DNA of 64,000 nt. It comes from an uncultured Candidatus Saccharibacteria bacterium. GTDB taxonomy: Bacteria; Patescibacteriota; Minisyncoccia; Phycocordibacterales; UBA1550. Of the stretch, positions 2,700-63,708 are shown one piece after another. The stretch is taken from contig CAZXOE010000003.1 in assembly GCA_964642305.1 (NCBI GenBank), positions 33,685-97,684 on the forward strand, given 5' to 3'. Each line of letters starts with the position of its first letter. Positions within the stretch are counted from its first letter, which is position 1. Below the pieces are notes generated by a model. It was given only the letters and a program-made list of their open reading frames with translations. It had not been told where the DNA came from and searched no databases. The translations under genes and the position numbers were made by a program.

Positions 2700-2711
2700 A
2701 ATAAATTGAAA

Positions 2712-2897
2712 TTACCAAGAAGACTTCTTTACTCCGGGGATCTTGCCGTCGTTTGCAAGCTCACGGAAACAAATACGGCAAAGGTCAAAATCGCGCATAT
2801 AACCGCGACGACGGCTACAATTAAAACAGCGACGCACAATACGTGAGCTGAATTTTGGCACCTTATTGGCGCGCGCGGTTACTGATGTTTTTGCCAT
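2712..2897 (-). CDS. rpsZ: 30S ribosomal protein S14, Zn-ribbon type (61 aa)
   Basis: CFNCSRRRGYMRDFDLCRICFRE C4 zinc-ribbon S14-type Z. Confidence 0.85.
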   Translation of the reverse strand: MAKTSVTARANKVPKFSSRIVRRCFNCSRRRGYMRDFDLCRICFRELANDGKIPGVKKSSW

Positions 2898-3037
2898 ATT
2901 GAAGTAGAATGCTGGGGTTTTGGCAATATCGCGCGCAAATTCTTTTGAAGACTATTGCTTGCGCTCAAGTCTTCAAAAGGAGGTGCGCGGATTGCTCAAA
3001 AAACCCACAGATGCATCCTAGCATATAGGGAAATATA

Positions 3038-3184
3038 GTCAACCCTCACACCTACTTTTTCATTATTGCATGGTGTTTTTAATATATTGCCTACAAAAAC
3101 TTCATATACCACTTAGTAGATAGGAATTTCTAGGCAAACTTGGAGCACCAAAAACACGATGAAAAAGTAGGTGTGGGGGTCAAC
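3038..3184. repeat. Palindromic MITE-like element, GGTGTGGGGGT family copy 1 (TIR gtcaaccctcacacctacttttt / aaaaagtaggtgtgggggtcaac)
   Basis: ~22-bp terminal inverted repeats around ~100 bp; the interior also pairs partly (ttttcat / atgaaaa). Confidence 0.6.
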
Positions 3185-3255
3185 AAAAAAGGCGCCTTTT
3201 TGAGACGCCCGTTTGGAATTGCTTTATGTTTTATTATTTTGTTGATTTTGGTTAC

Positions 3256-3507
3256 TTACGCGTGCAAACAACCTACTCCCCCGCCAAATGCGAGGAATGC
3301 CGGCCCACCGAATCGGCGCCCGTAGCTGTTTTCGTTGTCGCTATGGACACCATACAGGTGGACAGGGCGACCCTCAACAGCAAGCCAGTCGTTTGTTTCG
3401 CCCGGAAGACAGCTTGTGTCCAATGACAATCCGCTGTCCCCAGGTTTTGGAAATGGGAGCATTTGAAAACACTCTTTACCTACTATCTTTCTCGGCATAA
3501 TATACAA
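3256..3507 (-). CDS. Hypothetical protein (83 aa) in a locally GC-rich patch
   Basis: ORF only; AAAGGGG 10 nt upstream of ATG; no recognisable domain. Confidence 0.2.
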   Translation of the reverse strand: MYIMPRKIVGKECFQMLPFPKPGDSGLSLDTSCLPGETNDWLAVEGRPVHLYGVHSDNENSYGRRFGGPAFLAFGGGVGCLHA

Positions 3508-3677
3508 CCCCTTTTTGTTAAATTAAAGAACTCTTAACCATAGCCCCATGCCATAGTTAATTACCTTTCATTATACCATTTTAGATAATAAAACGCAATG
3601 GCGCCCGACAGTTTGACAAGAGTAATTTCTAGGAATAGTCTACATACAGCACAGTACAAATAACCAAGGAGAATGCG

Positions 3678-4211
3678 ATGCGCTACTTTATAGCACACAT
3701 TTTAGAGGATTATGTTGCAATATATCATAGCGCGCTTGCTGGCGAGCTTTCCACAGGGTTTGGTGTAAACGCAAGCGCTTCATTGTTTCCAGCACATATC
3801 ACAATCAAGGCGCCATTTAATATGGATGACGTGACAGAGATAAAAGAGGAGCTAAAGAAATTCGCCTCCACTCATTACGCGCCATCATTCACCATTCAGA
3901 ACTTCGGGCACTTTGGTGATAAAGTGATATTCCTTGATGTAGAGCGCAATTGTATGCTCTCTATTCTCGTATGGGATATACAAAACACCATAAAAAAGGT
4001 AACTGATCTAACCTGGGAGAAACACGAGCCATTGGAGATTCTCCATGTCACTATTGCAAAAAATTTTGACACGAAAAAATTTGATGCGATTTGGCATCGT
4101 CTACTGATGAAAAACTCTCCAACATTCAAATTATCATTTAACAATGTCACCCTTCTTCGTTTGGAAGATAATGCTTGGGTAGTAGACAGCGTCTACTACC
4201 TCAACAAATGA
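3678..4211 (+). CDS. 2H phosphoesterase superfamily protein (LigT / 2'-5' RNA ligase-like)
   Basis: Two H-x-T-x motifs (AHITIK and LHVTIA) spaced as in the 2H fold; followed by rho-independent terminator. Confidence 0.6.
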   Translation: MRYFIAHILEDYVAIYHSALAGELSTGFGVNASASLFPAHITIKAPFNMDDVTEIKEELKKFASTHYAPSFTIQNFGHFGDKVIFLDVERNCMLSILVWDIQNTIKKVTDLTWEKHEPLEILHVTIAKNFDTKKFDAIWHRLLMKNSPTFKLSFNNVTLLRLEDNAWVVDSVYYLNK

Positions 4212-4225
4212 TCTGCACTATACTC

Positions 4226-4256
4226 AAAAGCCGCCTTTCAGGCGGCTTTATTTATA
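4226..4256 (+). terminator. Rho-independent terminator after 2H phosphoesterase gene
   Basis: aaaagccgcc tttca ggcggcttt + T-run. Confidence 0.7.
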
Positions 4257-4369
4257 TTTTTGTAGAAATCGTGTGCTTTGTGACAGTGTGATGTTAAAAC
4301 ATTATATTATATATTTCTCTAAACAATTGGCTAAGGGGTGCATCCAGGAGTTTACATCTAGGATGTTTG

Positions 4370-4398
4370 CGTCCAAGACGTGAACTTGCTAGTTCAAA
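4370..4398 (+). repeat. 30-nt double-hairpin repeat, copy A (cgtccaagacgtgaacttgctagttca)
   Basis: Constant CGTCCAAGACGT + hairpin GAAyT-loop-ArTTC; shared by six loci. Confidence 0.6.
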
Positions 4399-4551
4399 GT
4401 CTGCTGATTCGGCCCAAGGCACAGATCTGCTGATTCGTAGCTGTCCTTACTTCATTCACATAATCTCTAGGGTTCTAAAGATTACAATATGCTGTTTCGA
4501 ATTCGCTTCTCATTCACCAGAATGACCTAAGGGTCGAGTACAAAAGCGTGG

Positions 4552-4580
4552 CTGAATTAGCAAATTCACGTCTTGGACGC
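4552..4580 (-). repeat. 30-nt double-hairpin repeat, copy B (inserted into loop of gcgtgg/ccacgc hairpin of the larger element)
   Basis: 28/28 identical to copy E at 57958; absent from the paralogous element at 19082. Confidence 0.6.
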
Positions 4581-4650
4581 TGAGACCACGCGGTATTGAC
4601 CTTTATTAGCTCCTCGGCTCGGTACTGAAAAAGATTACTTTTTTTATCTT

Positions 4651-4678
4651 CGTCCAAGACGCGAATCTGGTGATTCGT
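4651..4678 (+). repeat. 30-nt double-hairpin repeat, copy C (gaatc-tggt-gattc stem variant)
   Basis: cgtccaagacgcgaatctggtgattcg. Confidence 0.55.
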
Positions 4679-4737
4679 CTACGTCGCTAATAAAAAGGCG
4701 ACCGTACGGTCGCCTTGGAATGTGAGCGCAATGAAAT

Positions 4738-5130
4738 TTATTGCACGCGAATGTGGTCAAAAAACTGCGGGTGCTTACGGAATGGTGTTTTGTTTTTGTT
4801 CACACTCTTGCTGTGGTGTGTGGCTGCGAATGCATCAGACCACAAATGACGAGAATGACGCGGGGCACCACGATGATGCAAATGAAGGAAAAAATGATCA
4901 TTGCCTGTGCTACCAAGACTGATTTCTGCTAAACTGCGGATCGCTGGAGATGCAGACTCTTCGCTCCTGTCCGGCATTTCCAAATTGCTGCCTTGTTCAC
5001 TTATCTCGCGAAAACATCCACGATCCTGCGCTTCCAAAAAGTCACCGCCATCATCATTTGGAACAACATATGGGGTTGAAACAAGGTGTCCGCTAAAGAC
5101 TTGTTGCACATCACTGCACATATCAAACAT
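4738..5130 (-). CDS. Hypothetical protein (130 aa)
   Basis: ORF only; no SD; no recognisable domain. Confidence 0.2.
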   Translation of the reverse strand: MFDMCSDVQQVFSGHLVSTPYVVPNDDGGDFLEAQDRGCFREISEQGSNLEMPDRSEESASPAIRSLAEISLGSTGNDHFFLHLHHRGAPRHSRHLWSDAFAATHHSKSVNKNKTPFRKHPQFFDHIRVQ

Positions 5131-5277
5131 TATTATCTCCCTATAAATAAAAGTACTGCGCCCATTACCGCAAACATCTACGGTAAACTATCTAAGATAG
5201 TACAACAAATGCAGGGTATATGCAAATAAAAACATGGCGACATACAGATCGCCATGTTTTTATTTGCATATATTCCT

Positions 5278-5823
5278 CTACTTCTTAAATGGAACTCCGA
5301 TAATATCAAAAAATGCCGTAGCTTCTTTTTTGTTCTTTGCAGTAGTCACAACAGTAACTGCTAAACCGAAAAGGTCTTTTATGTCCTCGTCAGAAACTTC
5401 TGGGAAAATTGTCTGCTCTTTTACGCCGAGAGTTACATTGCCCATTTCATCAATACTCTTTCGGTCATAGCCACGGAAGTCGCGAGTACGAGGGATTGCA
5501 ACATTGAAAAACTTGTCTAGGAAGCCTATCATACGCGCACCTCGGAGTGTTACCGCAACCCCAATCTTGTCGCCTTCGCGGAGCTTAAATGCAGCGATGG
5601 ACTTCTTTGCAGCGCGGAGCGAAGGCTTCTGTCCGGTAATCTTTGCAATGCGTCCCATTACCATTTCGTTGCGGTTCTTATCCTTTGCGCGTCCAGTTGT
5701 CGCGGACACAACCACCTTCACGAGACGAGGAGCGGCAAGCTTGGCCTTGTAGCCAAAATCTTTCTTCATCGCATCAAATGCGCCTGCTTGTTTTTCCTTT
5801 ACTGATTTAAATGCTGATTTCAT
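5278..5823 (-). CDS. rplE: 50S ribosomal protein L5
   Basis: L5 signature (KAKLAAPRLVKVVVS…TLRGARM…FPEV). Confidence 0.9.
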   Translation of the reverse strand: MKSAFKSVKEKQAGAFDAMKKDFGYKAKLAAPRLVKVVVSATTGRAKDKNRNEMVMGRIAKITGQKPSLRAAKKSIAAFKLREGDKIGVAVTLRGARMIGFLDKFFNVAIPRTRDFRGYDRKSIDEMGNVTLGVKEQTIFPEVSDEDIKDLFGLAVTVVTTAKNKKEATAFFDIIGVPFKK

Positions 5824-10670: not shown

Positions 10671-10985
10671 TTACTTCCCTTTTACTTTTTGTTCTAGGCG
10701 ATTGAATCGAATTCGCAGATCGTCAAATTCATATCTTGGCACAAAACGATCACCGAGATTCAATACATCCTGCCTTGTGGCACTCAAATTGTCTTCAACA
10801 CTAACCAACCTGTCCTCAACACTAACCAACCTCTCTTCAACACTAACCAACTTGTCCTCAACTTTTACTATTCTGTCCTCAACTCTGTCAAATCCTTTTG
10901 CAACCATAATAGCCAAGTTATCAATAGTAACGGCGATGTCATCAATTGTCACTTTTTTATTAGTTTTATTGGTTGTTTTTTTCAT
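10671..10985 (-). CDS. Small coiled-coil protein with heptad repeats (encoded by ~5 tandem 21-nt repeats at ~10797-10905)
   Basis: VEDRLVSVEDRLVSVEERLVSVEDKLV. Confidence 0.5.
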   Translation of the reverse strand: MKKTTNKTNKKVTIDDIAVTIDNLAIMVAKGFDRVEDRIVKVEDKLVSVEERLVSVEDRLVSVEDNLSATRQDVLNLGDRFVPRYEFDDLRIRFNRLEQKVKGK

Positions 10986-17584: not shown

Positions 17585-17752
17585 GGAGGTTTTGCGCAAA
17601 GCGCAAATCTGCCCCTTGACTACTCCCACCCACAGCCGACCGCTGACATATAATAACTGACAAATTTGCCATTCGCCATTGGCAAATGGCGAATTTTCTA
17701 GTCAAATGTCCGCGCAAACGGTGCCAGTAGTCAGTTGTGCGCGCAGCACCTC

Positions 17753-18559
17753 CTACATCTCCGCGTAAATTCCTTTTGGTTTTTTAAGCTTACCAAATCC
17801 AATAAGAAGAAGGCTGAGCGCTATGTATACAAAAAAATGGGCAAAATAGAGAACATGTGTATGAGAAATACCAAATGTAAGCAAATAACTCGTTGATTCA
17901 AAATACTCAGAAAATGCAGCTAAGATTACGAGAATCGTCGCTGGAATCGCATATCTAGAGTAGTCAGCAAAAACTGGCATAATCTCTCGTATTTTCACCA
18001 TCGCCAAAATGCTAATGACTCCAAATCCAACTATTCCAGAGAGGATGATCAATGGGAACCATTCCGGCAGACTCTTTGCGACTACTGGCGAAAGGCTGGC
18101 GAACACAAGAACAGAGAAACAGCCGATTAGAAGCGTGTATAGTATTACGGTAAACATTGCTGATTTTTGGGAATAAATGCGGAATACAAATTCAAGAGCC
18201 AAGAGAATACCTAGTATCCATAGCAAATAACTTCCCATTACAGAAAGCTCCACCACTTCCGCATTGAACATAAAAACATCGAGCCCAAGATACTCATACA
18301 CATGAACAAGGCCCAAAAAAAGAAAGAATGCCATCTGAATTCTTAAAAAACCGCGTAAAATATAGTCACTGAACGCATAATCTGAAAAAATTCTTACAAT
18401 TATTAGAGCAACAAAGAGTATAGCTATACCATGAGCAAGTCCCGATTCTGCAAAATATTCACCACCTCCAGCAAGTAGGGCAGACAAAATTATGGCAAGA
18501 TTGAGCGCAATAAGCGCGTATGGAGTAAACAATTTTTCAAATACACTAAATATTCTCAT
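17753..18559 (-). CDS. Multi-pass integral membrane protein (~8 TM), function unknown
   Basis: Hydrophobic helices throughout; 3 nt from the upstream response regulator gene. Confidence 0.5.
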   Translation of the reverse strand: MRIFSVFEKLFTPYALIALNLAIILSALLAGGGEYFAESGLAHGIAILFVALIIVRIFSDYAFSDYILRGFLRIQMAFFLFLGLVHVYEYLGLDVFMFNAEVVELSVMGSYLLWILGILLALEFVFRIYSQKSAMFTVILYTLLIGCFSVLVFASLSPVVAKSLPEWFPLIILSGIVGFGVISILAMVKIREIMPVFADYSRYAIPATILVILAAFSEYFESTSYLLTFGISHTHVLYFAHFFVYIALSLLLIGFGKLKKPKGIYAEM

Positions 18560-18561
18560 TT

Positions 18562-18939
18562 TTATTTTAAATAACTTTTTGCCTTATCTACAACCTCCTG
18601 CATTGAATGGCTTACTTTTATCATATATTCGTTTGCGCCAAGTGTAATGGCTCTATCTTGGTCTATCTTTCCGCCAAGATTTGAAAGAACCAATACAGGA
18701 ATATTTGCTGTATCTGGATTTTTCTTGATTTCCTCAAGAATCGCAAAACCGTCTTTCTTGGGCACCATTAGATCAAGAATAATAAGGTCGGGCCTTTCTT
18801 CTATTACCCTTTCTGTCGCCTCCTCGCCACTGGCAATGAGAACGGTGGTGTATCCCTCTTTTAAAAACTTCATCTCATAAACCCTTGAGACATGTTCATC
18901 GTCCTCAATAATAAGAATCTTTTTTTTGTGTTCGCTCAT
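18562..18939 (-). CDS. Single-domain response regulator (CheY-like receiver)
   Basis: KILIIEDDE…DLIILDLMVP…EYMIK receiver motifs, 125 aa. Confidence 0.8.
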   Translation of the reverse strand: MSEHKKKILIIEDDEHVSRVYEMKFLKEGYTTVLIASGEEATERVIEERPDLIILDLMVPKKDGFAILEEIKKNPDTANIPVLVLSNLGGKIDQDRAITLGANEYMIKVSHSMQEVVDKAKSYLK

Positions 18940-19081
18940 GGAAATGTTTGTCAGTAATTAGTGTTCATATTGTACCATTTATAAATATAAACAGGCTATT
19001 TCCTGTGGATAACAGGAACCCAAAAAGTCGGGCCTCCTACAAAATATAGGCCCCTGCGGCAGAGACCGCAGGGTAATACTT

Positions 19082-19246
19082 CGAATTCGCTTCGCTCATA
19101 CAAAAGCGTGGCAGAGACCACGCGGTATTGACCTATATTAGCTCCTCGGCTCGGTACTGAAAAAGATTACTTTTCCAGCACTCTCGCTCTACGTCGCTAA
19201 TAAAGGGCGGTCCTTTTTTAAAAAAGGACTGCCCTTTATTTTTTAG
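19082..19246 (+). repeat. Modular ~150-nt intergenic element, copy 2 (lacks the nested 30-nt repeat) + bidirectional terminator
   Basis: Blockwise identity with 4497-4722; ends in aaagggcggtcctttttt/aaaaaaggactgcccttt hairpin that also terminates fusA. Confidence 0.6.
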
Positions 19247-19250
19247 CTAC

Positions 19251-21395
19251 CTACTTCCTTGCTTCAATAATAGTGAGCGCTACATTTTGAGGCACAATAT
19301 CGTAGTGATCAAACTCCATTGTTGATGAAGCGCGACCTTCTGTCATTGAGCGAAGAGCGGTTGTATAGCCAAACATTTCAGAAAGAGGAACTTGCGCTGT
19401 GAGCACTTTCATCATGCCACGCTCGCTCATTCCTTCGATTTGTGCGCGCTTTGATGAGAGGTTGCCGGCAACGTCACCCATGAACTTCTCTGGCATGACG
19501 ATTTCCACTTTCATGATAGGTTCAAGAATAACTGGACCTGCTTTCTTTACCGCTTCTTGGAATGCCTGAGAACCTGCAATCTTAAACGCGATTTCTGAAG
19601 AGTCCACTTCGTGGAAAGAACCGTCGTAAAGCTCAGCTGAAATATCTACCACCTTGTAGCCTGCCTGCACACCACGGTCCATCGCTTCGATGATACCTTT
19701 TTCTACTGGCGCAATAAATTCCTGTGGAATAACACCTCCTTTAATAGAGTTTGTAAATTCAAAGTGGTCATCGCGACGCTTTGTCTGTTTTGGAAGATCC
19801 TCAACCGCAATAGTCTTGTCGATTGGCTTGATGCGAATCTTCACATGGCCGTACTGACCGCGACCACCTGTCTGCTTGATGTACTTGCACTCTGCTTCTG
19901 CTTCGCGAGTGATAGTTTCCTTGTATGCAACTTGTGGCTTTCCAACGTTTGCTTCCACGTTGAACTCGCGCTTCATGCGGTCTACGAGAATTTCTAGGTG
20001 AAGTTCGCCCATGCCGGAAATAATTGTTTCCATTGTTTCCTCATCGCTTGAAATGCGGAACGTTGGATCTTCGTCTGCGAGCTTCCTAAGCGCCATACCC
20101 ATTCTCTCTTGGTCTGCTTTTGTTTTTGGTTCAATACGCAGAGAGATAACTGGCTCAGGGAATTTAATTTCTTCCAAAATAATTGGGTTTGCTTCATCAC
20201 AAAGTGTGTGTGAAGTACGTGTGTCCTTTAGGCCAACCATCGCCGCAATATCTCCTGCGAAAACTTTTTTAATTTCCTGACGTGAATCCGCCTGAAGTTT
20301 CACCATACGGCCCACGCGCTCCTTGTCGCCAGTTGTTGCATTGTATACATATGAACCTGCTTCTATAGTACCTGAATACACGCGGAAGAAACAAAGCTGT
20401 CCGACGAATGGGTCTGCCTGAAGTTTGAACGCAAGCGCAGTAAAAGGCTCCTTGTCAGATGCATGGCGATCAATTGCATCTCCTGTGCGTGGGTCTATTC
20501 CGTGAATAGCGGGGATATCAAGAGGGGATGGAAGATAATCCACCACTGCGTCGAGCACGAGCTGTACACCCTTATTCTTGAGGGCTGAGCCTGCGTACAC
20601 TGGGAAAATTTCGTTATTGATAACTGCCTTACGAAGATTTGCTTTGAGAACATCCATAGGAATTTCTTTTCCTTCAAGATAGTCGTTCATCAATGTCTCA
20701 TCGTTCTCTACAATACGCTCAATAAGGTCAGCACGGAACTGCTTTGCCTCAGCTAAATATTTCTCAGGGATTTCCGCCTCTTTTACTTCAATACCCATCT
20801 CTCCTTCAAATTTAAACATCTTCATCTTAAGAAGATCGATAACACCTTCAAACTCATCCTCAAGTCCAACAGGAATCTGCATACGAACAGCCTTTGTGTT
20901 TAGTCTATCAAGAATAGATGCGTATGATTTCTCAAATGACGCGCCTGTACGGTCCAATTTGTTAATGAAACAAATACGTGGAACTTTTGCCTCGTCTGCA
21001 TAGCGCCAGTTTGTTTCTGATTGTGGCTCTACTCCTGCAACTCCATCAAAGACCACCACTGCGCCGTCGAGCACACGAAGGGAACGCTTTACTTCTACAG
21101 TAAAGTCGATGTGTCCTGGTGTGTCGATGATATTAAAATGCCAGAGATTTTTCTTATCCTTTGGCTCGTCCGTTTTATTCCACGCGCAACTAATAGCCGC
21201 CGCAGTAATGGTGATACCACGCTCGCGCTCCTGTTCCATCCAGTCGGTTGTGGTTGCACCTTCGTGAACCTCACCAATCTTGTGAGTCATACCTGTGTAA
21301 AACAAAATACGCTCAGACGTTGTCGTCTTGCCTGCGTCGATGTGCGCGATGATACCAAAATTGCGTAGTTTCTCTAACGGATATTCTCTGTCCAT
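19251..21395 (-). CDS. fusA: Elongation factor G
   Basis: AHIDAGKTT, DTPGHIDF GTPase motifs; 714 aa. Confidence 0.95.
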   Translation of the reverse strand: MDREYPLEKLRNFGIIAHIDAGKTTTSERILFYTGMTHKIGEVHEGATTTDWMEQERERGITITAAAISCAWNKTDEPKDKKNLWHFNIIDTPGHIDFTVEVKRSLRVLDGAVVVFDGVAGVEPQSETNWRYADEAKVPRICFINKLDRTGASFEKSYASILDRLNTKAVRMQIPVGLEDEFEGVIDLLKMKMFKFEGEMGIEVKEAEIPEKYLAEAKQFRADLIERIVENDETLMNDYLEGKEIPMDVLKANLRKAVINNEIFPVYAGSALKNKGVQLVLDAVVDYLPSPLDIPAIHGIDPRTGDAIDRHASDKEPFTALAFKLQADPFVGQLCFFRVYSGTIEAGSYVYNATTGDKERVGRMVKLQADSRQEIKKVFAGDIAAMVGLKDTRTSHTLCDEANPIILEEIKFPEPVISLRIEPKTKADQERMGMALRKLADEDPTFRISSDEETMETIISGMGELHLEILVDRMKREFNVEANVGKPQVAYKETITREAEAECKYIKQTGGRGQYGHVKIRIKPIDKTIAVEDLPKQTKRRDDHFEFTNSIKGGVIPQEFIAPVEKGIIEAMDRGVQAGYKVVDISAELYDGSFHEVDSSEIAFKIAGSQAFQEAVKKAGPVILEPIMKVEIVMPEKFMGDVAGNLSSKRAQIEGMSERGMMKVLTAQVPLSEMFGYTTALRSMTEGRASSTMEFDHYDIVPQNVALTIIEARK

Positions 21396-22133: not shown

Positions 22134-22565
22134 TTATTTCTTAGCTGGAGCTCCTGCCTTTGGACGCTTTGCTCCGTATTGACTGCGACCCTTCATACGC
22201 TTCTCTACTGGTGTTGCATCCAAACGTCCACGAACAATGTGGTAGCGCACACCTCCAAGGTCCTTTACGCGACCTCCGCGAATCATAACCACCGAGTGCT
22301 CCTGAAGCTTGTGGCCCATACCAGGAATGTATGCAGTAACTTCCATACCATTAGTAAGACGAACACGGGCGATTTTGCGAAGCGCTGAGTTTGGCTTCTT
22401 TGGAGTAGTTGTCGTTACTTTTGTGCAAACACCACGCTTAAAAGGAGAATTGTGAAAAACAGGCTTGTTCAAAATGCTGTTAAAGCTTTTTCCAAGCGCG
22501 ATTGAACTAGACTTCTTTTTAAAAATCTTTCGTGGGCGCTTTACGAGCTGGTTGGTTGTTGGCAT
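22134..22565 (-). CDS. rpsL: 30S ribosomal protein S12 with C-terminal basic extension
   Basis: [10 protein letters not shown]…[14 protein letters not shown] signature. Confidence 0.9.
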
Positions 22566-22680: not shown

Positions 22681-22805
22681 CGCTAGTCGAAAATCTTAAA
22701 GTGTTTATGTCCAAGACACGTGCCCAGGACACAGCTCTGGTGACCCGTCAGCTGATTCGAAGTCGAAAGTCAAAAGTGGGCCCGTCAATTGTTAAATGTT
22801 GGAAT

Positions 22806-41139: not shown

Positions 41140-41241
41140 GGAGCAAAGCGACATATTTTACTTAACCCGCCAAAATTTTCTGAAAGAAAACTTAGGCGGG
41201 TGAGATTTTCAACCTCGCTTCGCTCAAAGAAAATCATCATC
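41140..41241 (+). promoter_or_regulatory. Conserved ~100-nt leader element upstream of nusA (paralogous to rpmB leader)
   Basis: aggagcaaagcgacata…acccgccaaaattttctgaaagaaaacttaggcgggt…ctcgcttcgctc…aaaatcatcatcATG. Confidence 0.6.
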
Positions 41242-42546
41242 ATGTTAGACTTAAAACAACTAGGTTCTGCGTTGGAACAGCTTGAGCAAGAGCGTGGCAT
41301 CCCCCGCGCAAAAATAGTAGAGGCTATTGAGCAAGCGCTTGCGGCCGCATACAAAAAGGACTTTGGGAAAAAAGGTCAGATTGTTCGCGCTATTTTTGAC
41401 ATAAACTCAGGAAAAACCGAGTTTATTCAGGTTAAAATCGTTGTTGACGAGAGCGCTGTTCGCATGCCAGATGACACAGACGAGGACGCAGAGACAAAGG
41501 AAAAGACCCTAAATGCTGATGCCCCAACAGGTGAAGAAATTTCCCTTCGTCGTTTTAGCCCTGAACACGATATTCTTCTTGAGGACGCGCGCCGAATCAA
41601 ACGTGATGCAGTTTCTGGTGATGAAGTAATCTTCCCTCTTGAGACTCACGACGACTATGGTCGCATCGCAGCCCAAACTGCAAAGCAAGTGATTATTCAG
41701 CGTATTCGCGAAGCTGAGAAGGTCTCCATTGTTGGCGAGTATGGTGGAAAAGTTGGTGATATTATTCAAGGCTCTGTGCAAAGAATGGAGCGTGGCAATA
41801 TCTTTGTTGATCTCGGAAAGACCACTGGTCTCCTTGCCTACGAAGACCAAATTCCTAGCGAACGATATAAGCAGGGCGAGAGGATCAGCGCTTATCTGTA
41901 TAAAGTAGAGGAAACTCCCCGTGGAATTGACGTTCGCCTTTCACGAGCTCACCCAAAGATGATCGAGAAACTTTTTGCTCAGGAGGCGCCAGAAGTTGCA
42001 GCTGGAACTGTACAAATAAAGGCGGTTGCTCGCGAAGCAGGCTCACGCGCAAAGGTTGCGGTATCATCAAGCGATGAGCATATTGACCCTATCGGTTCGT
42101 GTGTTGGCCAGCGTGGTGTGCGTGTTTCTACTGTTATGAGCGAACTTGGCGGTGAGAAAATTGACCTTATTGTATGGTCAGAGGATACCAAGAAGTTTAT
42201 TGAGGATGCTCTTTCGCCAGCGCAGGTGCAGTCTGTTGTACTTGATGAGGAAAATCACCAAGCAACTGTAACCGTTTCTGCCGATCAGCAGTCTCTCGCA
42301 ATCGGTCGCGGAGGTCAGAATGTGCGACTAGCCGCAAAGCTTACCGGATGGAAGCTAGATATTGTAGGCCTTCCCGGGGAAGAAGTAGAAAGTGTAAAGT
42401 CAGAAGTTGAAAGTGATACACAAGTGGTTTCTGAAACTCCTGAATCAGCAGACGGGTCAGCAGAGCCGCTTCTGGAAGCACGTCCGGACGCTGACCTAAA
42501 ATCGGCCGTGGAAGAAGCAGCCGCAGAAACACAAATAACTGAGTAG
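41200..42546 (+). CDS. nusA: Transcription termination/antitermination factor NusA (true start likely M at 41242)
   Basis: NusA N-domain, S1, two KH domains (GSRAKVAV…IDPIGSCVGQRG), acidic tail. Confidence 0.9.
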   Translation: MRFSTSLRSKKIIIMLDLKQLGSALEQLEQERGIPRAKIVEAIEQALAAAYKKDFGKKGQIVRAIFDINSGKTEFIQVKIVVDESAVRMPDDTDEDAETKEKTLNADAPTGEEISLRRFSPEHDILLEDARRIKRDAVSGDEVIFPLETHDDYGRIAAQTAKQVIIQRIREAEKVSIVGEYGGKVGDIIQGSVQRMERGNIFVDLGKTTGLLAYEDQIPSERYKQGERISAYLYKVEETPRGIDVRLSRAHPKMIEKLFAQEAPEVAAGTVQIKAVAREAGSRAKVAVSSSDEHIDPIGSCVGQRGVRVSTVMSELGGEKIDLIVWSEDTKKFIEDALSPAQVQSVVLDEENHQATVTVSADQQSLAIGRGGQNVRLAAKLTGWKLDIVGLPGEEVESVKSEVESDTQVVSETPESADGSAEPLLEARPDADLKSAVEEAAAETQITE

Positions 42547-42617
42547 TTACTTCCAACTTGCCTCGTCTTTGCGAGTACCCGAAGCAAACCAGGGCACGTG
42601 CAATAAATCCTGGATAG

Positions 42618-42650
42618 CGCCCAAGACGTGAATCTGGTGATTCAGCCACG
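42618..42650 (+). repeat. 30-nt double-hairpin repeat, copy D, followed by AGGAG/CTCCT hairpin
   Basis: cgcccaagacgtgaatctggtgattcagccacg. Confidence 0.55.
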
Positions 42651-42711
42651 AAGGAGTACCTCCTCGCAATGACAATATTCACTATTTAATTATTAATTAT
42701 TTACTATCCTT

Positions 42712-49292: not shown

Positions 49293-49955
49293 CTACGCGT
49301 ACATAAAGTAAGCGGTGGCGAACATACACAAATAAAACATAACGCTTGAAGACCAGTAAACCTTCTTGTTATTGCTTTCGGCGGTGACGAAGGCGAGGGC
49401 GGCGAAGGCGGAGGCGGCGAAGGCGAAGGCGACGGAGGTGGCGGAGATGGAGGCGGAGGCGAAGGCGAAGGCGGAGGCGAAGGCGAAGGAGGCGAAGGCG
49501 GCGATGGCGAAGGCGGCACCTTTATTGTATTCCTTTATGAAAAAGAAACGATTTGACACCGCCAGTGCAATCACCCCAACCAACCAAAAGAAGAAGTATG
49601 GATTGAACGACTCTTCTTCCGTGGCTATTTTATCTTCCACGACATCCACCGTACGAGTTGCTTTGTTGTATACGACCGCCATTTCTGTTGTTGTGGTGGT
49701 CCTCTGTGTAATTAGCCCGACCATACTCCGAGAAACACTAGGATTGCCGACGGCAACAGGTTTCTCGGTTTTGATTGCTTCCTCCCACGCATTCCCGTAA
49801 GCTTTCGCTTCAGGCATTACGGTGATGTCCATCTGTGTTGCATTTACAGCAGGCTCCACAAGACGCAGAGACCCATCGCTCAATTTCTCCACATTTCCCG
49901 CTTGTGCGGAAACTGAAAAAAACATCACTAATACTGCCAGAATGAATTTCTTCAT
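49293..49955 (-). CDS. Secreted/membrane protein whose C-terminal half is encoded by a GC-rich hexanucleotide tandem repeat
   Basis: Signal peptide [19 protein letters not shown]; (AFAFAS)n region from (GGCGAA/GGCGGA)n repeat at ~49375-49520. Confidence 0.5.
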
Positions 49956-57734: not shown

Positions 57735-58163
57735 CTAAAGAACGATATTCTCCAAAAATTTGACTCGTGCCTTACGAGTTTTTATGTCAATTTCAACGGT
57801 AACTGCGTCAAAAACCCATTCTGGCTCCCCGTTTGCGTGTTTTTCAAACAAATATAACTGAATTACACGCGCTAGTCTCTTGAGTTTGTACGGGTGAAGA
57901 TTGTCTTCTGGACGATAACTGCTTGTTTCACGCGAAACATTCCTACTGTTTTCACTGCGTCCAAGACGTGAATTTGCTAATTCAGTAACACTTTTTACCT
58001 CAATAAAATGGGTAATTCCGTCCTTTTTAGCAATAATATCAATTTCCCCGCACTTTTTGAGGTAATTTCGCTCAATTATTGAAAAATCCTTATTTTCTAA
58101 GTATTTTACGGCAATATCCTCTCCCAAGCGTCCAATTTTCTGCTTTTCCGTAGGTTTTCCCAT
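57735..58163 (-). CDS. yraN: YraN-family (UPF0102) endonuclease-like protein carrying an in-frame copy of the 30-nt repeat
   Basis: GEIDIIAKKDGITHFIEVKS … YKLKRLARVIQLYL; extra segment TELANSRLGR encoded by repeat copy E. Confidence 0.65.
   Translation of the reverse strand: MGKPTEKQKIGRLGEDIAVKYLENKDFSIIERNYLKKCGEIDIIAKKDGITHFIEVKSVTELANSRLGRSENSRNVSRETSSYRPEDNLHPYKLKRLARVIQLYLFEKHANGEPEWVFDAVTVEIDIKTRKARVKFLENIVL
57958..57986 (+). repeat. 30-nt double-hairpin repeat, copy E (inside yraN CDS, in frame)
   Basis: cgtccaagacgtgaatttgctaattcag, identical to copy B. Confidence 0.6.
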
Positions 58164-58502: not shown

Positions 58503-59207
58503 GTGCTATACTTTAGAGATATGCGTAAGGACAAAGAGCAAGCAGTTAATCTGCGCAAGCTTGGCAAAAGCTACAAGGAAATTTCAAATGAATTGCGTAT
58601 TCCAAAAAGTACGCTGTCAGAATGGTTTGGCGGTTCAGTGTGGTCGCAAAAAATTAAAGAAAATCTTAACTGCGTTGCTCAGGCAAATAGCACTGTGCGA
58701 ATTATAGAACTCAACAATATTCGTGGAGAGCATCTTGAAAAACTTTATACACAGGCAAGGCTTGAAGCGTTGGAAGATTTTATGGCGCTCAAACACCACC
58801 CGACATTTGTTGCCGGAGTGATGCTGTATTGGGGTGAAGGGGATAAAGCGTCTCTACATCGAGTATCGCTGACAAACACAGACCCAGCAATGATTAAAAT
58901 CTTTATGATTTTTCTTAAAGAAGTCTGCGGGATTAGTGATGAGAAAATTAAAGTATGGCTTCTTTTATACCCAGATCTTCAGGAATCAGATTGCAAGGAA
59001 TATTGGGCAAGGGAAGCTGGTTTACAAAATATAACTTTTAATAAAAGTATTGTGATAGATGGTAGACACAAGACCAAGCGACTAGGGCATGGCGTCTGTA
59101 CTGTTGGTGTTTCTAGTAGATATTTTAAGGAAAAGATGTTATTGTGGATTTCACTATTCCCTGATATGCTTGCTGACGGGGGATTATACAAACAAACGCG
59201 GATATAA
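58503..59207 (+). CDS. HTH-domain protein with possible degenerate LAGLIDADG-like homing-endonuclease fold; 3' end overlaps tRNA-Gly(GCC) by ~10 nt
   Basis: N-terminal HTH LRKLGKSYKEISNELRIPKSTLSEWF; FVAGVMLYWGEGDKASL…LKEVCGI spacing resembles the I-CreI topology. Confidence 0.4.
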   Translation: MLYFRDMRKDKEQAVNLRKLGKSYKEISNELRIPKSTLSEWFGGSVWSQKIKENLNCVAQANSTVRIIELNNIRGEHLEKLYTQARLEALEDFMALKHHPTFVAGVMLYWGEGDKASLHRVSLTNTDPAMIKIFMIFLKEVCGISDEKIKVWLLLYPDLQESDCKEYWAREAGLQNITFNKSIVIDGRHKTKRLGHGVCTVGVSSRYFKEKMLLWISLFPDMLADGGLYKQTRI

Positions 59208-63460: not shown

Positions 63461-63484
63461 GAGGCGTGGTGCCTCCCTTTGGTT
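63461..63484. terminator. Bidirectional terminator
   Basis: aaagggaggc gtggt gcctcccttt. Confidence 0.7.
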
Positions 63485-63501
63485 GATGGTTAGAACATGA
63501 A

Positions 63502-63708
63502 CTAGTCTTTTGACGGCTCCTCTGTGCAGAGGAGGTGGATGATGGCGACATGCATCTTCTTATCGCCCTCCCAGCGGATGTCCACCAAAATCACCTCGTG
63601 TTCGGTCTCGTAGAGCAGGTCATTCAGATCTTCTTCGAGCCCGCCGACAAGAAGTGTGTTGCGGATGATTTTAATCTGGCGAAATTTACGACTGTAACCT
63701 GTAGACAT
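63502..63708 (-). CDS. Hypothetical small protein (68 aa) with good RBS (GAGGAG-N6-ATG)
   Basis: ORF + SD. Confidence 0.35.
   Translation of the reverse strand: MSTGYSRKFRQIKIIRNTLLVGGLEEDLNDLLYETEHEVILVDIRWEGDKKMHVAIIHLLCTEEPSKD

Follow-up and report, generated by a model that had tools for sequence, protein, structure and literature searches.

The stretch of DNA analysed here (64 kb, about 43% G+C; hereafter the window) carries on its minus strand a bacterial cluster of genes for ribosomal proteins, EF-G and EF-Tu, and further holds nusA, ppa, yraN, pilus genes and four isolated tRNAs. The nearest kin of its genes and repeats are found in MAGs labelled Yonathbacteria, Nomurabacteria, Kaiserbacteria, Paceibacterota or Minisyncoccia, all of them Patescibacteria (CPR). 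The ribosomal-protein/elongation-factor gene order is broken at 2700-5280, where a gene for a LigT-like 2'-5' RNA ligase (3678-4211, +) and an ORF (4738-5130) lie between rplE and rpsH, and at 17750-19250, where a stand-alone receiver-domain gene (18562-18939) and a 268-aa ORF lie between fusA and tuf; the order element-receiver-ORF is shared with locus L058. Two tandem repeats are also present (49365-49523 and 10785-10889), one being GGC/GAA-rich with a period of 9-15 nt and the other having a period of 21 nt (CAACCTGTCCTCAACACTAAC). In addition, the motif AAAGTAGGTGTGGGGGT, often followed by ATAC/TATA, occurs at 3164, 17563, 36446, 37083 and 43402 (+), and its reverse complement at 3033, 10592, 36991 and 43335. 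It resembles a promoter or other upstream signal, with at least the 43402 copy lying upstream of a gene start.

Dispersed among these genes is a short repeat unit that reads CGYCCARGACG, then Y, then GAAYYTGSTRRTTC, then R. It is 27 nt long and is preceded by a co-travelling 5' dinucleotide, which replaces the 30-nt size given in the preliminary description of this DNA. The unit is composed of two hairpins: hairpin A, with a 4-bp stem (CGTC/GACG) and a CAR triloop, is directly abutted, with zero spacer, by hairpin B, with a 6-bp stem and a TGST tetraloop. Base 12 (T/C, after CGTCCAAGACG) and base 27 (A/G, after the second hairpin) form the outermost pair of hairpin B, which among 109 distinct instances was T:A in 75 and C:G in 34, with no exceptions. 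Since base 27 had been left free in the search pattern from which this count was made, its pairing is free of model-fitting bias, and the invariable complementarity of the pair therefore sets the second stem at 6 bp and not at the 5 bp first proposed. The minimum-energy DNA fold is the double hairpin on both strands; the RNA fold also gives two adjacent hairpins, with stem boundaries slightly shifted in three of four folds. The predicted fold energies of the unit lie between -5 and -9 kcal/mol.

Within the window, CGTCCAAGACGT has six matches at up to one mismatch, against 0.18 expected, and none of 100 shuffles reached six. Scored with a covariance model built from the found instances, the six intact copies of the window gave 45-49 bits, and three decayed copies exist besides them; at six per 64 kb, the unit is locally rich. 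One intact copy (1276-1302, +; 48.5 bits), missing from the six first listed, lies antisense and in frame within rpsE (660-1370, -), where it encodes ESADSRPGR in a low-complexity N-terminal extension of ribosomal protein S5; in locus L035 the flanks are 81.8% identical to those of this site, which is there exactly 27 nt shorter. The extension as a whole measures about 85 aa, is rich in G/R/S/A/T and precedes the Pfam S5 domain. A second copy, with the stem variant GAACT/AGTTC (4370-4396, +; 47.5 bits), heads a hairpin cluster. It is followed at 4397-4437 (+), as the sequence is read here, by a hairpin-B-like extra piece, AAGTCTGCTGATTCGG, and then by a decayed unit, GCCCAAGGCACAGATCTGCTGATTCGT, which the covariance model places at 4411-4437 (14.5 bits, E 0.06). 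In the same intergenic region two more intact copies are found, one (4553-4579, -; 49.2 bits) in a hairpin loop of the host element described below and the other, of C:G type and identified with the covariance model, at 4651-4677 (+) within module M3 (4604-4692) of that element.

Between nusA and ppa lies a CGCCC variant (42618-42644, +; 45.3 bits), nested in a composite palindromic repeat at 42565-42673 (GTCTTTGCGAG...CTCGCAATGAC) that recurs at many loci. This composite repeat of about 100 nt, with the arrangement GTCTTTGCGAG...GAAGCAATCCAGG...CTCGCAAAGAC, was also seen in L003, L013, L014, L024, L027, L037, L095, L096 and L099, and in it the 27-mer is found time and again, at internal positions that vary. 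The last intact copy, detected with the covariance model (57958-57984, +), is antisense and in frame within yraN (57735-58163, -). Among the decayed forms, an antisense array at 42441-42491 (-), within the 3' end of nusA (41200-42546, +), encodes PESADGSAEPLLEARPD and contains a degraded unit at 42453-42478 (13.6 bits with the covariance model). Upstream of rpsL (22134-22565, -), the segment 22708-22760 (+), with the arrangement A A' B' B, matches weakly (8.7 and 7.6 bits); seven other loci hold intact units in a context resembling this one (L040, L049, L054, L057, L071, L072 and L100), and the comparison suggests a decayed nested array. Five of the six copies in the preliminary description are, accordingly, intact and present where it placed them, and the one near 22708 is a weak match only (8.7 bits).

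The earlier claim that the two sides of the stem co-vary proved real, and stronger than it had been stated. Watson-Crick pairing was found at pair 16-23 in 100 of the 109 instances and at pair 17-22 in 107, and 41 covariance-model matches beyond the strict pattern carry compensatory changes in both hairpins. In hairpin A the compensated variants are CATC/GATG, CGGC/GCCG, CTTC/GAAG, GTTC/GAAC, TGTC/GACA and TGGC/GCCA, and in hairpin B these matches also show changes at positions that are fixed in the strict pattern (GAGTC/GACTC). Across 69 distinct rows, whose alignment was fitted to the covariance model and whose pairing is for that reason somewhat inflated, 95.9% of the pairing cells were paired against 83.1% after shuffling, and double-change cells numbered 107 against 32 in shuffles. 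None of 500 shuffles attained the observed values, and slid registers also fell far short. Two-sided changes occur at nine of the ten base pairs, in agreement with the proposal that the hairpin, and not its sequence, is what is maintained. The loops are mostly constant (CAR in 59 and TGST in 51 of the 69 distinct copies). The mismatch balance of G:T versus C:A (6 versus 19) was considered as an indicator of the selected strand and dropped as evidence, the count being uninformative because the pattern permitted C3:A9 but not T3:G9. Compensatory stem changes could also be mutational in origin, arising without selection by template switching in quasi-palindromes.

A scan with the exact pattern of 185,579 species genomes (one per species) returned 107 matches in 102 stretches, all in about 30 Patescibacteria MAGs, whereas chance would give about 0.07 (4^-18 x 2^-8 x 1.2e12 positions). 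A metagenome scan added at least 120 stretches with the unit, and a viral contig collection gave no match to it. Strict copies number 5-12 per MAG, with four on one 784-kb contig, which corresponds to about one unit per 10-100 kb. Most are single (107/113), and nested arrays also exist. Despite this low copy number, the sequence of the unit hardly varies among many lineages, a combination seldom seen in selfish repeats. Rfam 15 at the gathering threshold returned only tRNAs, and with E <= 10 nothing credible appeared around 4250-4760 and 18940-19260; in the literature searched, neither a relevant occurrence of the motif string nor a description of the unit was found.

That the unit comes and goes as a block is shown by comparisons of filled and empty sites, in which the flanks of each copy were searched against all fetched loci. 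For about a dozen distinct sites, including the S5 and yraN copies of the window, an orthologue was found with flanks 76-94% identical and exactly 27 nt missing, so that the earlier notion of a tiny insertional palindromic unit is borne out; the word "autonomous" then applied to it is wrong, because the unit encodes nothing and must move in trans. Codon alignments revealed clean 9-codon indels in UvrC (TGC|27 nt|AAA), PheT and ArgRS, and in some pairs of orthologues each member has the unit at a different place. In UvrC and other sites the unit is a contiguous 27-nt block, and the empty allele bears no resemblance to it. No target-site duplication was seen in the filled/empty comparisons. The 5' junction is nevertheless altered: the dinucleotide before the unit is usually TG or AG, and filled and empty alleles agree there in only 4/17 cases at -2 and 5/17 at -1, compared with about 12/17 further out and 12-13/17 just 3' of the unit (+1 and +2); 2 nt thus seem to have been exchanged for 29, an alteration that simple cut-and-paste leaves unexplained. 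A two-piece, centre-preserving insertion model was also considered and fits yraN perfectly, yet it was rejected as a general description since only 4 of the 17 empty sites conform to it (CGY at the junction). Where both orthologues are filled, the copies are about 1% diverged against about 20% in the flanks, a comparison that is biased because both copies were chosen by the search pattern; the identity of such copies is nonetheless suggestive of gene conversion or of constraint acting on single copies. Decayed copies do exist, both in the window and in the yraN orthologue P0002 (ELPNSHLGC).

About 42% of the copies (47/113) lie within long ORFs, 23 in sense and 24 in antisense orientation, and they use essentially only the stop-free frames, encoding RPRRE[FLS]A[NDS]S, VQDVNLLI or E[LS]A[ND]SRLGR. 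All 20 long host ORFs that were checked encode housekeeping proteins: RpoD, ArgRS, PheRS beta, UvrC and a DEAD-box helicase (each twice), IleRS, CysRS, RNase R, IF-2, RecJ, ComEC, a Mur ligase, TGT, a XerC-like recombinase and a histidine kinase. In these proteins the unit sits at termini, in linkers or at small insertion points in the Pfam match, and the host genes of the window are those of S5 and YraN, together with the tail of nusA, which holds the decayed array. With respect to GC skew there is no strand bias (48 of 113 copies). Hairpin loops were rejected as a general target, strong complementarity between flanks being present in 5/63 intergenic copies against 4.7% of control positions. 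The same MAGs also display insertions at the level of whole domains in aminoacyl-tRNA synthetases, namely an IleRS with a His_Phos_1 domain inside and a PheRS beta with an NlpC/P60 domain inside (loci L019:87-3623 (-), L042:4514-6913 (-) and L044:3095-5335 (-)).

The loop of YraN between EVKSVS and YRPEDN is a repeated insertion hotspot. The window copy at 57958 had been described as a 30-nt in-frame insertion adding TELANSRLGR; the reading frame was correct, and the net insertion is 27 nt, or nine codons, encoding ELANSRLGR in a variable surface loop, the orthologues at L104 and L105 being shorter by exactly that length. Among the 120 closest clusters of YraN orthologues, 26 have a complete peptide encoded by the unit, in antisense orientation in 19 and in sense orientation in 8, one of them having both. 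Units occupy two sites in the loop, with some nested forms, and orthologues are either empty or filled at one or the other, with both orientations occurring at one of them. Empty yraN sites contain a palindrome (TTCACGTGAA) that agrees with the unit's centre, and splitting the filled allele into 15 nt + ACGT + 12 nt leaves no mismatch, a kind of microhomology that is not general, CGY being found at the junction in only 4 of the 17 empty sites. A different recurrent insert, encoding ...SHRSDLC..., ...PHRRGL... or ...SHRLNLC..., was noticed in the same loop in P0003, P0009, P0011, P0012, P0025, P0033 and others (aligned to window 57900-58000), and it is probably another small palindromic element. 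Adjoining yraN, an ORF at 58503-59207 (+) overlaps the start of a tRNA-Gly and has no other family match; it was set aside as a candidate, having only a sub-threshold HTH (Sleeping Beauty transposase HTH, 24 bits) and no NCBIfam match.

The host element mentioned above is a modular, hairpin-rich intergenic repeat (4497-4722), 97% identical over 64 nt to a paralogue at 19040-19205 that, in the sequence comparison, is without either 27-nt unit; the paralogue folds better on the minus strand (-66 kcal/mol, z = -5.1). The nesting that had been proposed was confirmed: the 4553 copy lies in the loop of the hairpin GCGTGG...CCACGC (4546-4591), whose empty form, GCGTGGCAGAGACCACGC, is seen at 19106-19123 of the window and in L012 and L158, and whose filled form is seen in L058, L081, L082, L147, L151, L161 and L170. 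Of 11 M3 copies found in the window or at other MAG loci, 9 have the unit, whose hairpin-B stem shows compensatory changes, and the empty paralogue of the window is therefore the exception at that position. A second family of mini-hairpins, TCATTC-ASCA-GAATGA, also inserts in the host element (window 4512-4530; M3 of L023, L045, L063 and L095), and its ASCA loop is complementary to the TGST of hairpin B.

As to its origin, the host element looks like a miniature derivative of an IS200-type insertion sequence of CPR bacteria, because of a shared hairpin family and of a shared slot after rplE. The hairpin CCCTGYGG-TCTCTG-CCRCAGGG makes up modules of the host element and lies on the minus strand of the window paralogue (19052-19073 and 19106-19123). 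It is also found next to the Y1_Tnp gene of L181 and those of 23 of the 27 loci L227-L253; the remaining four have a variant with a TCTTCCTG loop or a truncated hairpin. At most Y1 loci one hairpin stands on each side of the gene, in direct orientation and preceded by ATA/TTA, and in L227-L231 the transposase gene directly follows rplE, the position taken in the window by the host element. The insertion sequence (L181:1466-2028; L227-L253, with the gene at about 1501-1926 in most) is apparently active in Patescibacteria, the same 140-aa Y1 transposase being found in up to 39 contexts. In most loci a directly oriented hairpin, CCCTGCGG-TCTCTG-CCGCAGG(G), flanks it on either side, and its right end terminates in ...TTGATT.

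It could be asked whether any gene accompanies the 27-mer itself. Among 917 clustered ORFs around its copies, no gene family consistently adjoins it, the commonest neighbours being receiver domains, pilus ATPases and pilins. A transposase search of all loci, in which IS200/IS608 query sequences were used, gave the Y1 gene at L181:1534-1965 (Pfam Y1_Tnp, E 3.7e-37) as the sole true match among the searched loci. This is the one Y1 gene in the 1.65 Mb around 232 copies (1/227 loci), and it is flanked by a different hairpin; no 27-mer lies within 1.5 kb of 27 Y1 transposase genes (66 kb). An IS608-like tblastn match at 63472-63663 of the window was weak and was discarded because it is full of stop codons.

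The reading favoured here, with a probability of roughly 60%, is that the 27-mer is a non-autonomous, miniature, structure-dependent mobile DNA element of Paceibacteria-type Patescibacteria. In this model, the cassette of two adjacent hairpins would be read as a folded single strand by a trans-acting activity, which would copy or paste it into new sites. Hairpin formation would be needed for propagation, and for that reason only well-paired variants would be seen as fresh copies. The length of nine codons, together with three to four stop-free frames out of six, may allow copies to persist in essential proteins at surface loops, linkers and termini. The enzyme responsible for movement would probably be hairpin- or ssDNA-specific, and a mechanism like that of HUH/Y1 enzymes would fit because there is no duplication. 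Low copy number, very high conservation across lineages and apparently preserved orthologous copies are odd for a selfish repeat, and some constraint at the level of the host, or based on conversion, may therefore operate.

Such constraint is central to a different explanation, considered rather unlikely, in which a conserved protein binds the double hairpin and its loops and the copies are kept by the host for that function, their spread being secondary. The binder might be a structure-specific nuclease, a nucleoid or segregation factor or an RNA-binding protein. Near-invariance in some 30 species-level MAGs at only 5-12 copies per genome would be expected of such a recognition module, as would largely conserved loops between co-varying stems, the retention of the M3 copy in 9 of 11 cases with compensatory changes, and orthologous copies that stay unchanged between flanks about 20% diverged (an ascertainment-biased comparison). 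Against this, orientation relative to transcription is random, which argues against a function in single-stranded RNA, positions are mostly non-orthologous between species, many copies have decayed, no neighbour gene is conserved, and the hosts are unrelated essential proteins in which a regulatory role is not obvious. The near-identity of the motif among co-occurring groundwater lineages could alternatively reflect a DNA uptake signal, whereby motif-bearing fragments would be preferentially imported (type IV pili, ComEC) and spread by transformation and recombination. The occurrence in both orientations, in tolerated gene frames and in terminator loops, the pilus and secretion ATPases and pilins encoded in the window and the absence from viral contigs are in line with this, but the unit is a 27-nt insertion found about once per 10-100 kb, and compensatory stem changes are unexpected for a signal of this kind because uptake receptors read duplex sequence; the explanation is judged very improbable indeed.

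Dedicated machinery might also be dispensable altogether, if template switching between quasi-palindromes or microhomologies both made and copied the hairpins and stems were perfected mutationally. The yraN alleles speak for this possibility, the empty one already having TTCACGTGAA and the filled one fitting 15 nt + ACGT + 12 nt without mismatch, and so do the symmetry of nested arrays about a central CGT and the altered 5' junction. Nonetheless, it is held to be very unlikely: only 4/17 empty sites have CGY at the junction, the units in UvrC and elsewhere are contiguous 27-nt blocks whose empty alleles do not resemble them, and template switching leaves unexplained how one near-identical 27-mer came to be at dozens of unrelated sites in many species. 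The preferred reading, that of a mobile element moved in trans, can be extended to the unlikely suggestion that an unrecognised machinery conserved in Paceibacteria (not RAYT, IS200 or DDE) writes the 27-mer without target homology or duplication, even in essential genes. The cassette might then itself be what a conserved structure-specific protein recognises, a candidate being the nuclease YraN/UPF0102, whose own gene, yraN, is the strongest insertion hotspot seen here.

The genomes of Patescibacteria are among the smallest and most streamlined of bacteria and, to our knowledge, dispersed repeats are not something for which these organisms are known. In them, essential genes, among them those for sigma-70, aminoacyl-tRNA synthetases, IF-2, S5, NusA and UvrC, have repeatedly taken up a 27-nt hairpin cassette in frame, which makes this cassette a convergent parallel, in another reduced-genome lineage, to the palindromic elements of Rickettsia. 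In these MAGs the 27-mer gives rise to small insertions in proteins and to artefacts in annotation and alignment. It also offers a handle on a putative activity that inserts DNA without duplication, and its conserved loops and co-varying stems constitute a defined ligand with which to find the factor that recognises it.

Among known systems, DNA uptake sequences (USS/DUS) occur about once per kb and arise by point substitution without change in length, in contrast to the 27-nt indels described here, present at 5-12 per MAG. MITEs are defined by a length of 50-500 bp, terminal inverted repeats and a target-site duplication, whereas the 27-mer has 27 nt and its filled and empty sites differ by exactly that number without duplication. 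Miniature elements derived from IS200/IS605 have subterminal hairpins, as does the host element, which differs from the parent family in being without a transposase gene and in having extra modules (M3) and insertions of the 27-mer; the hairpins of the 27-mer itself are dissimilar to IS200/IS605 ends. A functional resemblance, by description only, is found with the cyanobacterial repeats SDR4-6, which Elhai et al. (2008; cited in PMC5861425 and PMC3116915) reportedly described as mobile hairpin repeats of 21-27 nt, nested in each other or in other repeats and with no known transposase: the 27-mer too is a hairpin unit in that size range, nested and present or absent at orthologous positions. 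SDRs are said by the same authors to be confined to Nostocaceae, with SDR5 targeting the HIP1 palindrome, and we know of no report of their frequent in-frame insertion in essential genes; in sequence they are presumably unrelated to the 27-mer.

With REPs and REPINs the 27-mer shares short length (20-40 nt), dispersed hairpins with variable, compensated stems, some intragenic copies and clustering with other repeats. REPs have an unpaired GTAG or CGTC head beside a single stem of 8-9 bp with a 4-5-nt loop, and the CGTC-tagged class has a CCA tail and no dedicated transposase (PMC3733652); REPINs are thought to move in trans as folded ssDNA (PMC3116915). The CGTC of the 27-mer, by contrast, pairs and co-varies with GACG and is the arm of a hairpin, and two hairpins of 4 and 6 bp without a CCA tail take the place of the single stem. 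Extragenic location and inverted doublets, typical of REPs and REPINs, contrast with 47/113 intragenic and 107/113 single copies, tens to thousands of copies with 5-12 per genome, and an arrangement flanking RAYT genes with the absence of 27-mers within 1.5 kb of 27 Y1 genes; no paper linking RAYTs or REPINs to Patescibacteria was found. The palindromic elements of Rickettsia (RPEs), of about 100-150 bp, occur in host-dependent bacteria with reduced genomes as in-frame insertions in unrelated housekeeping genes, where they lengthen the protein by a peptide segment and do not destroy it (PMC10969869). The 27-mer is likewise inserted in frame, but it has 27 nt, an unrelated sequence and a patescibacterial host, and it is read in three frames and both orientations where RPEs encode a conserved peptide in one frame. 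Although it fails the defining features of each family, the 27-mer is best read as belonging with the miniature palindromic mobile repeats of the REP, SDR and RPE kind.
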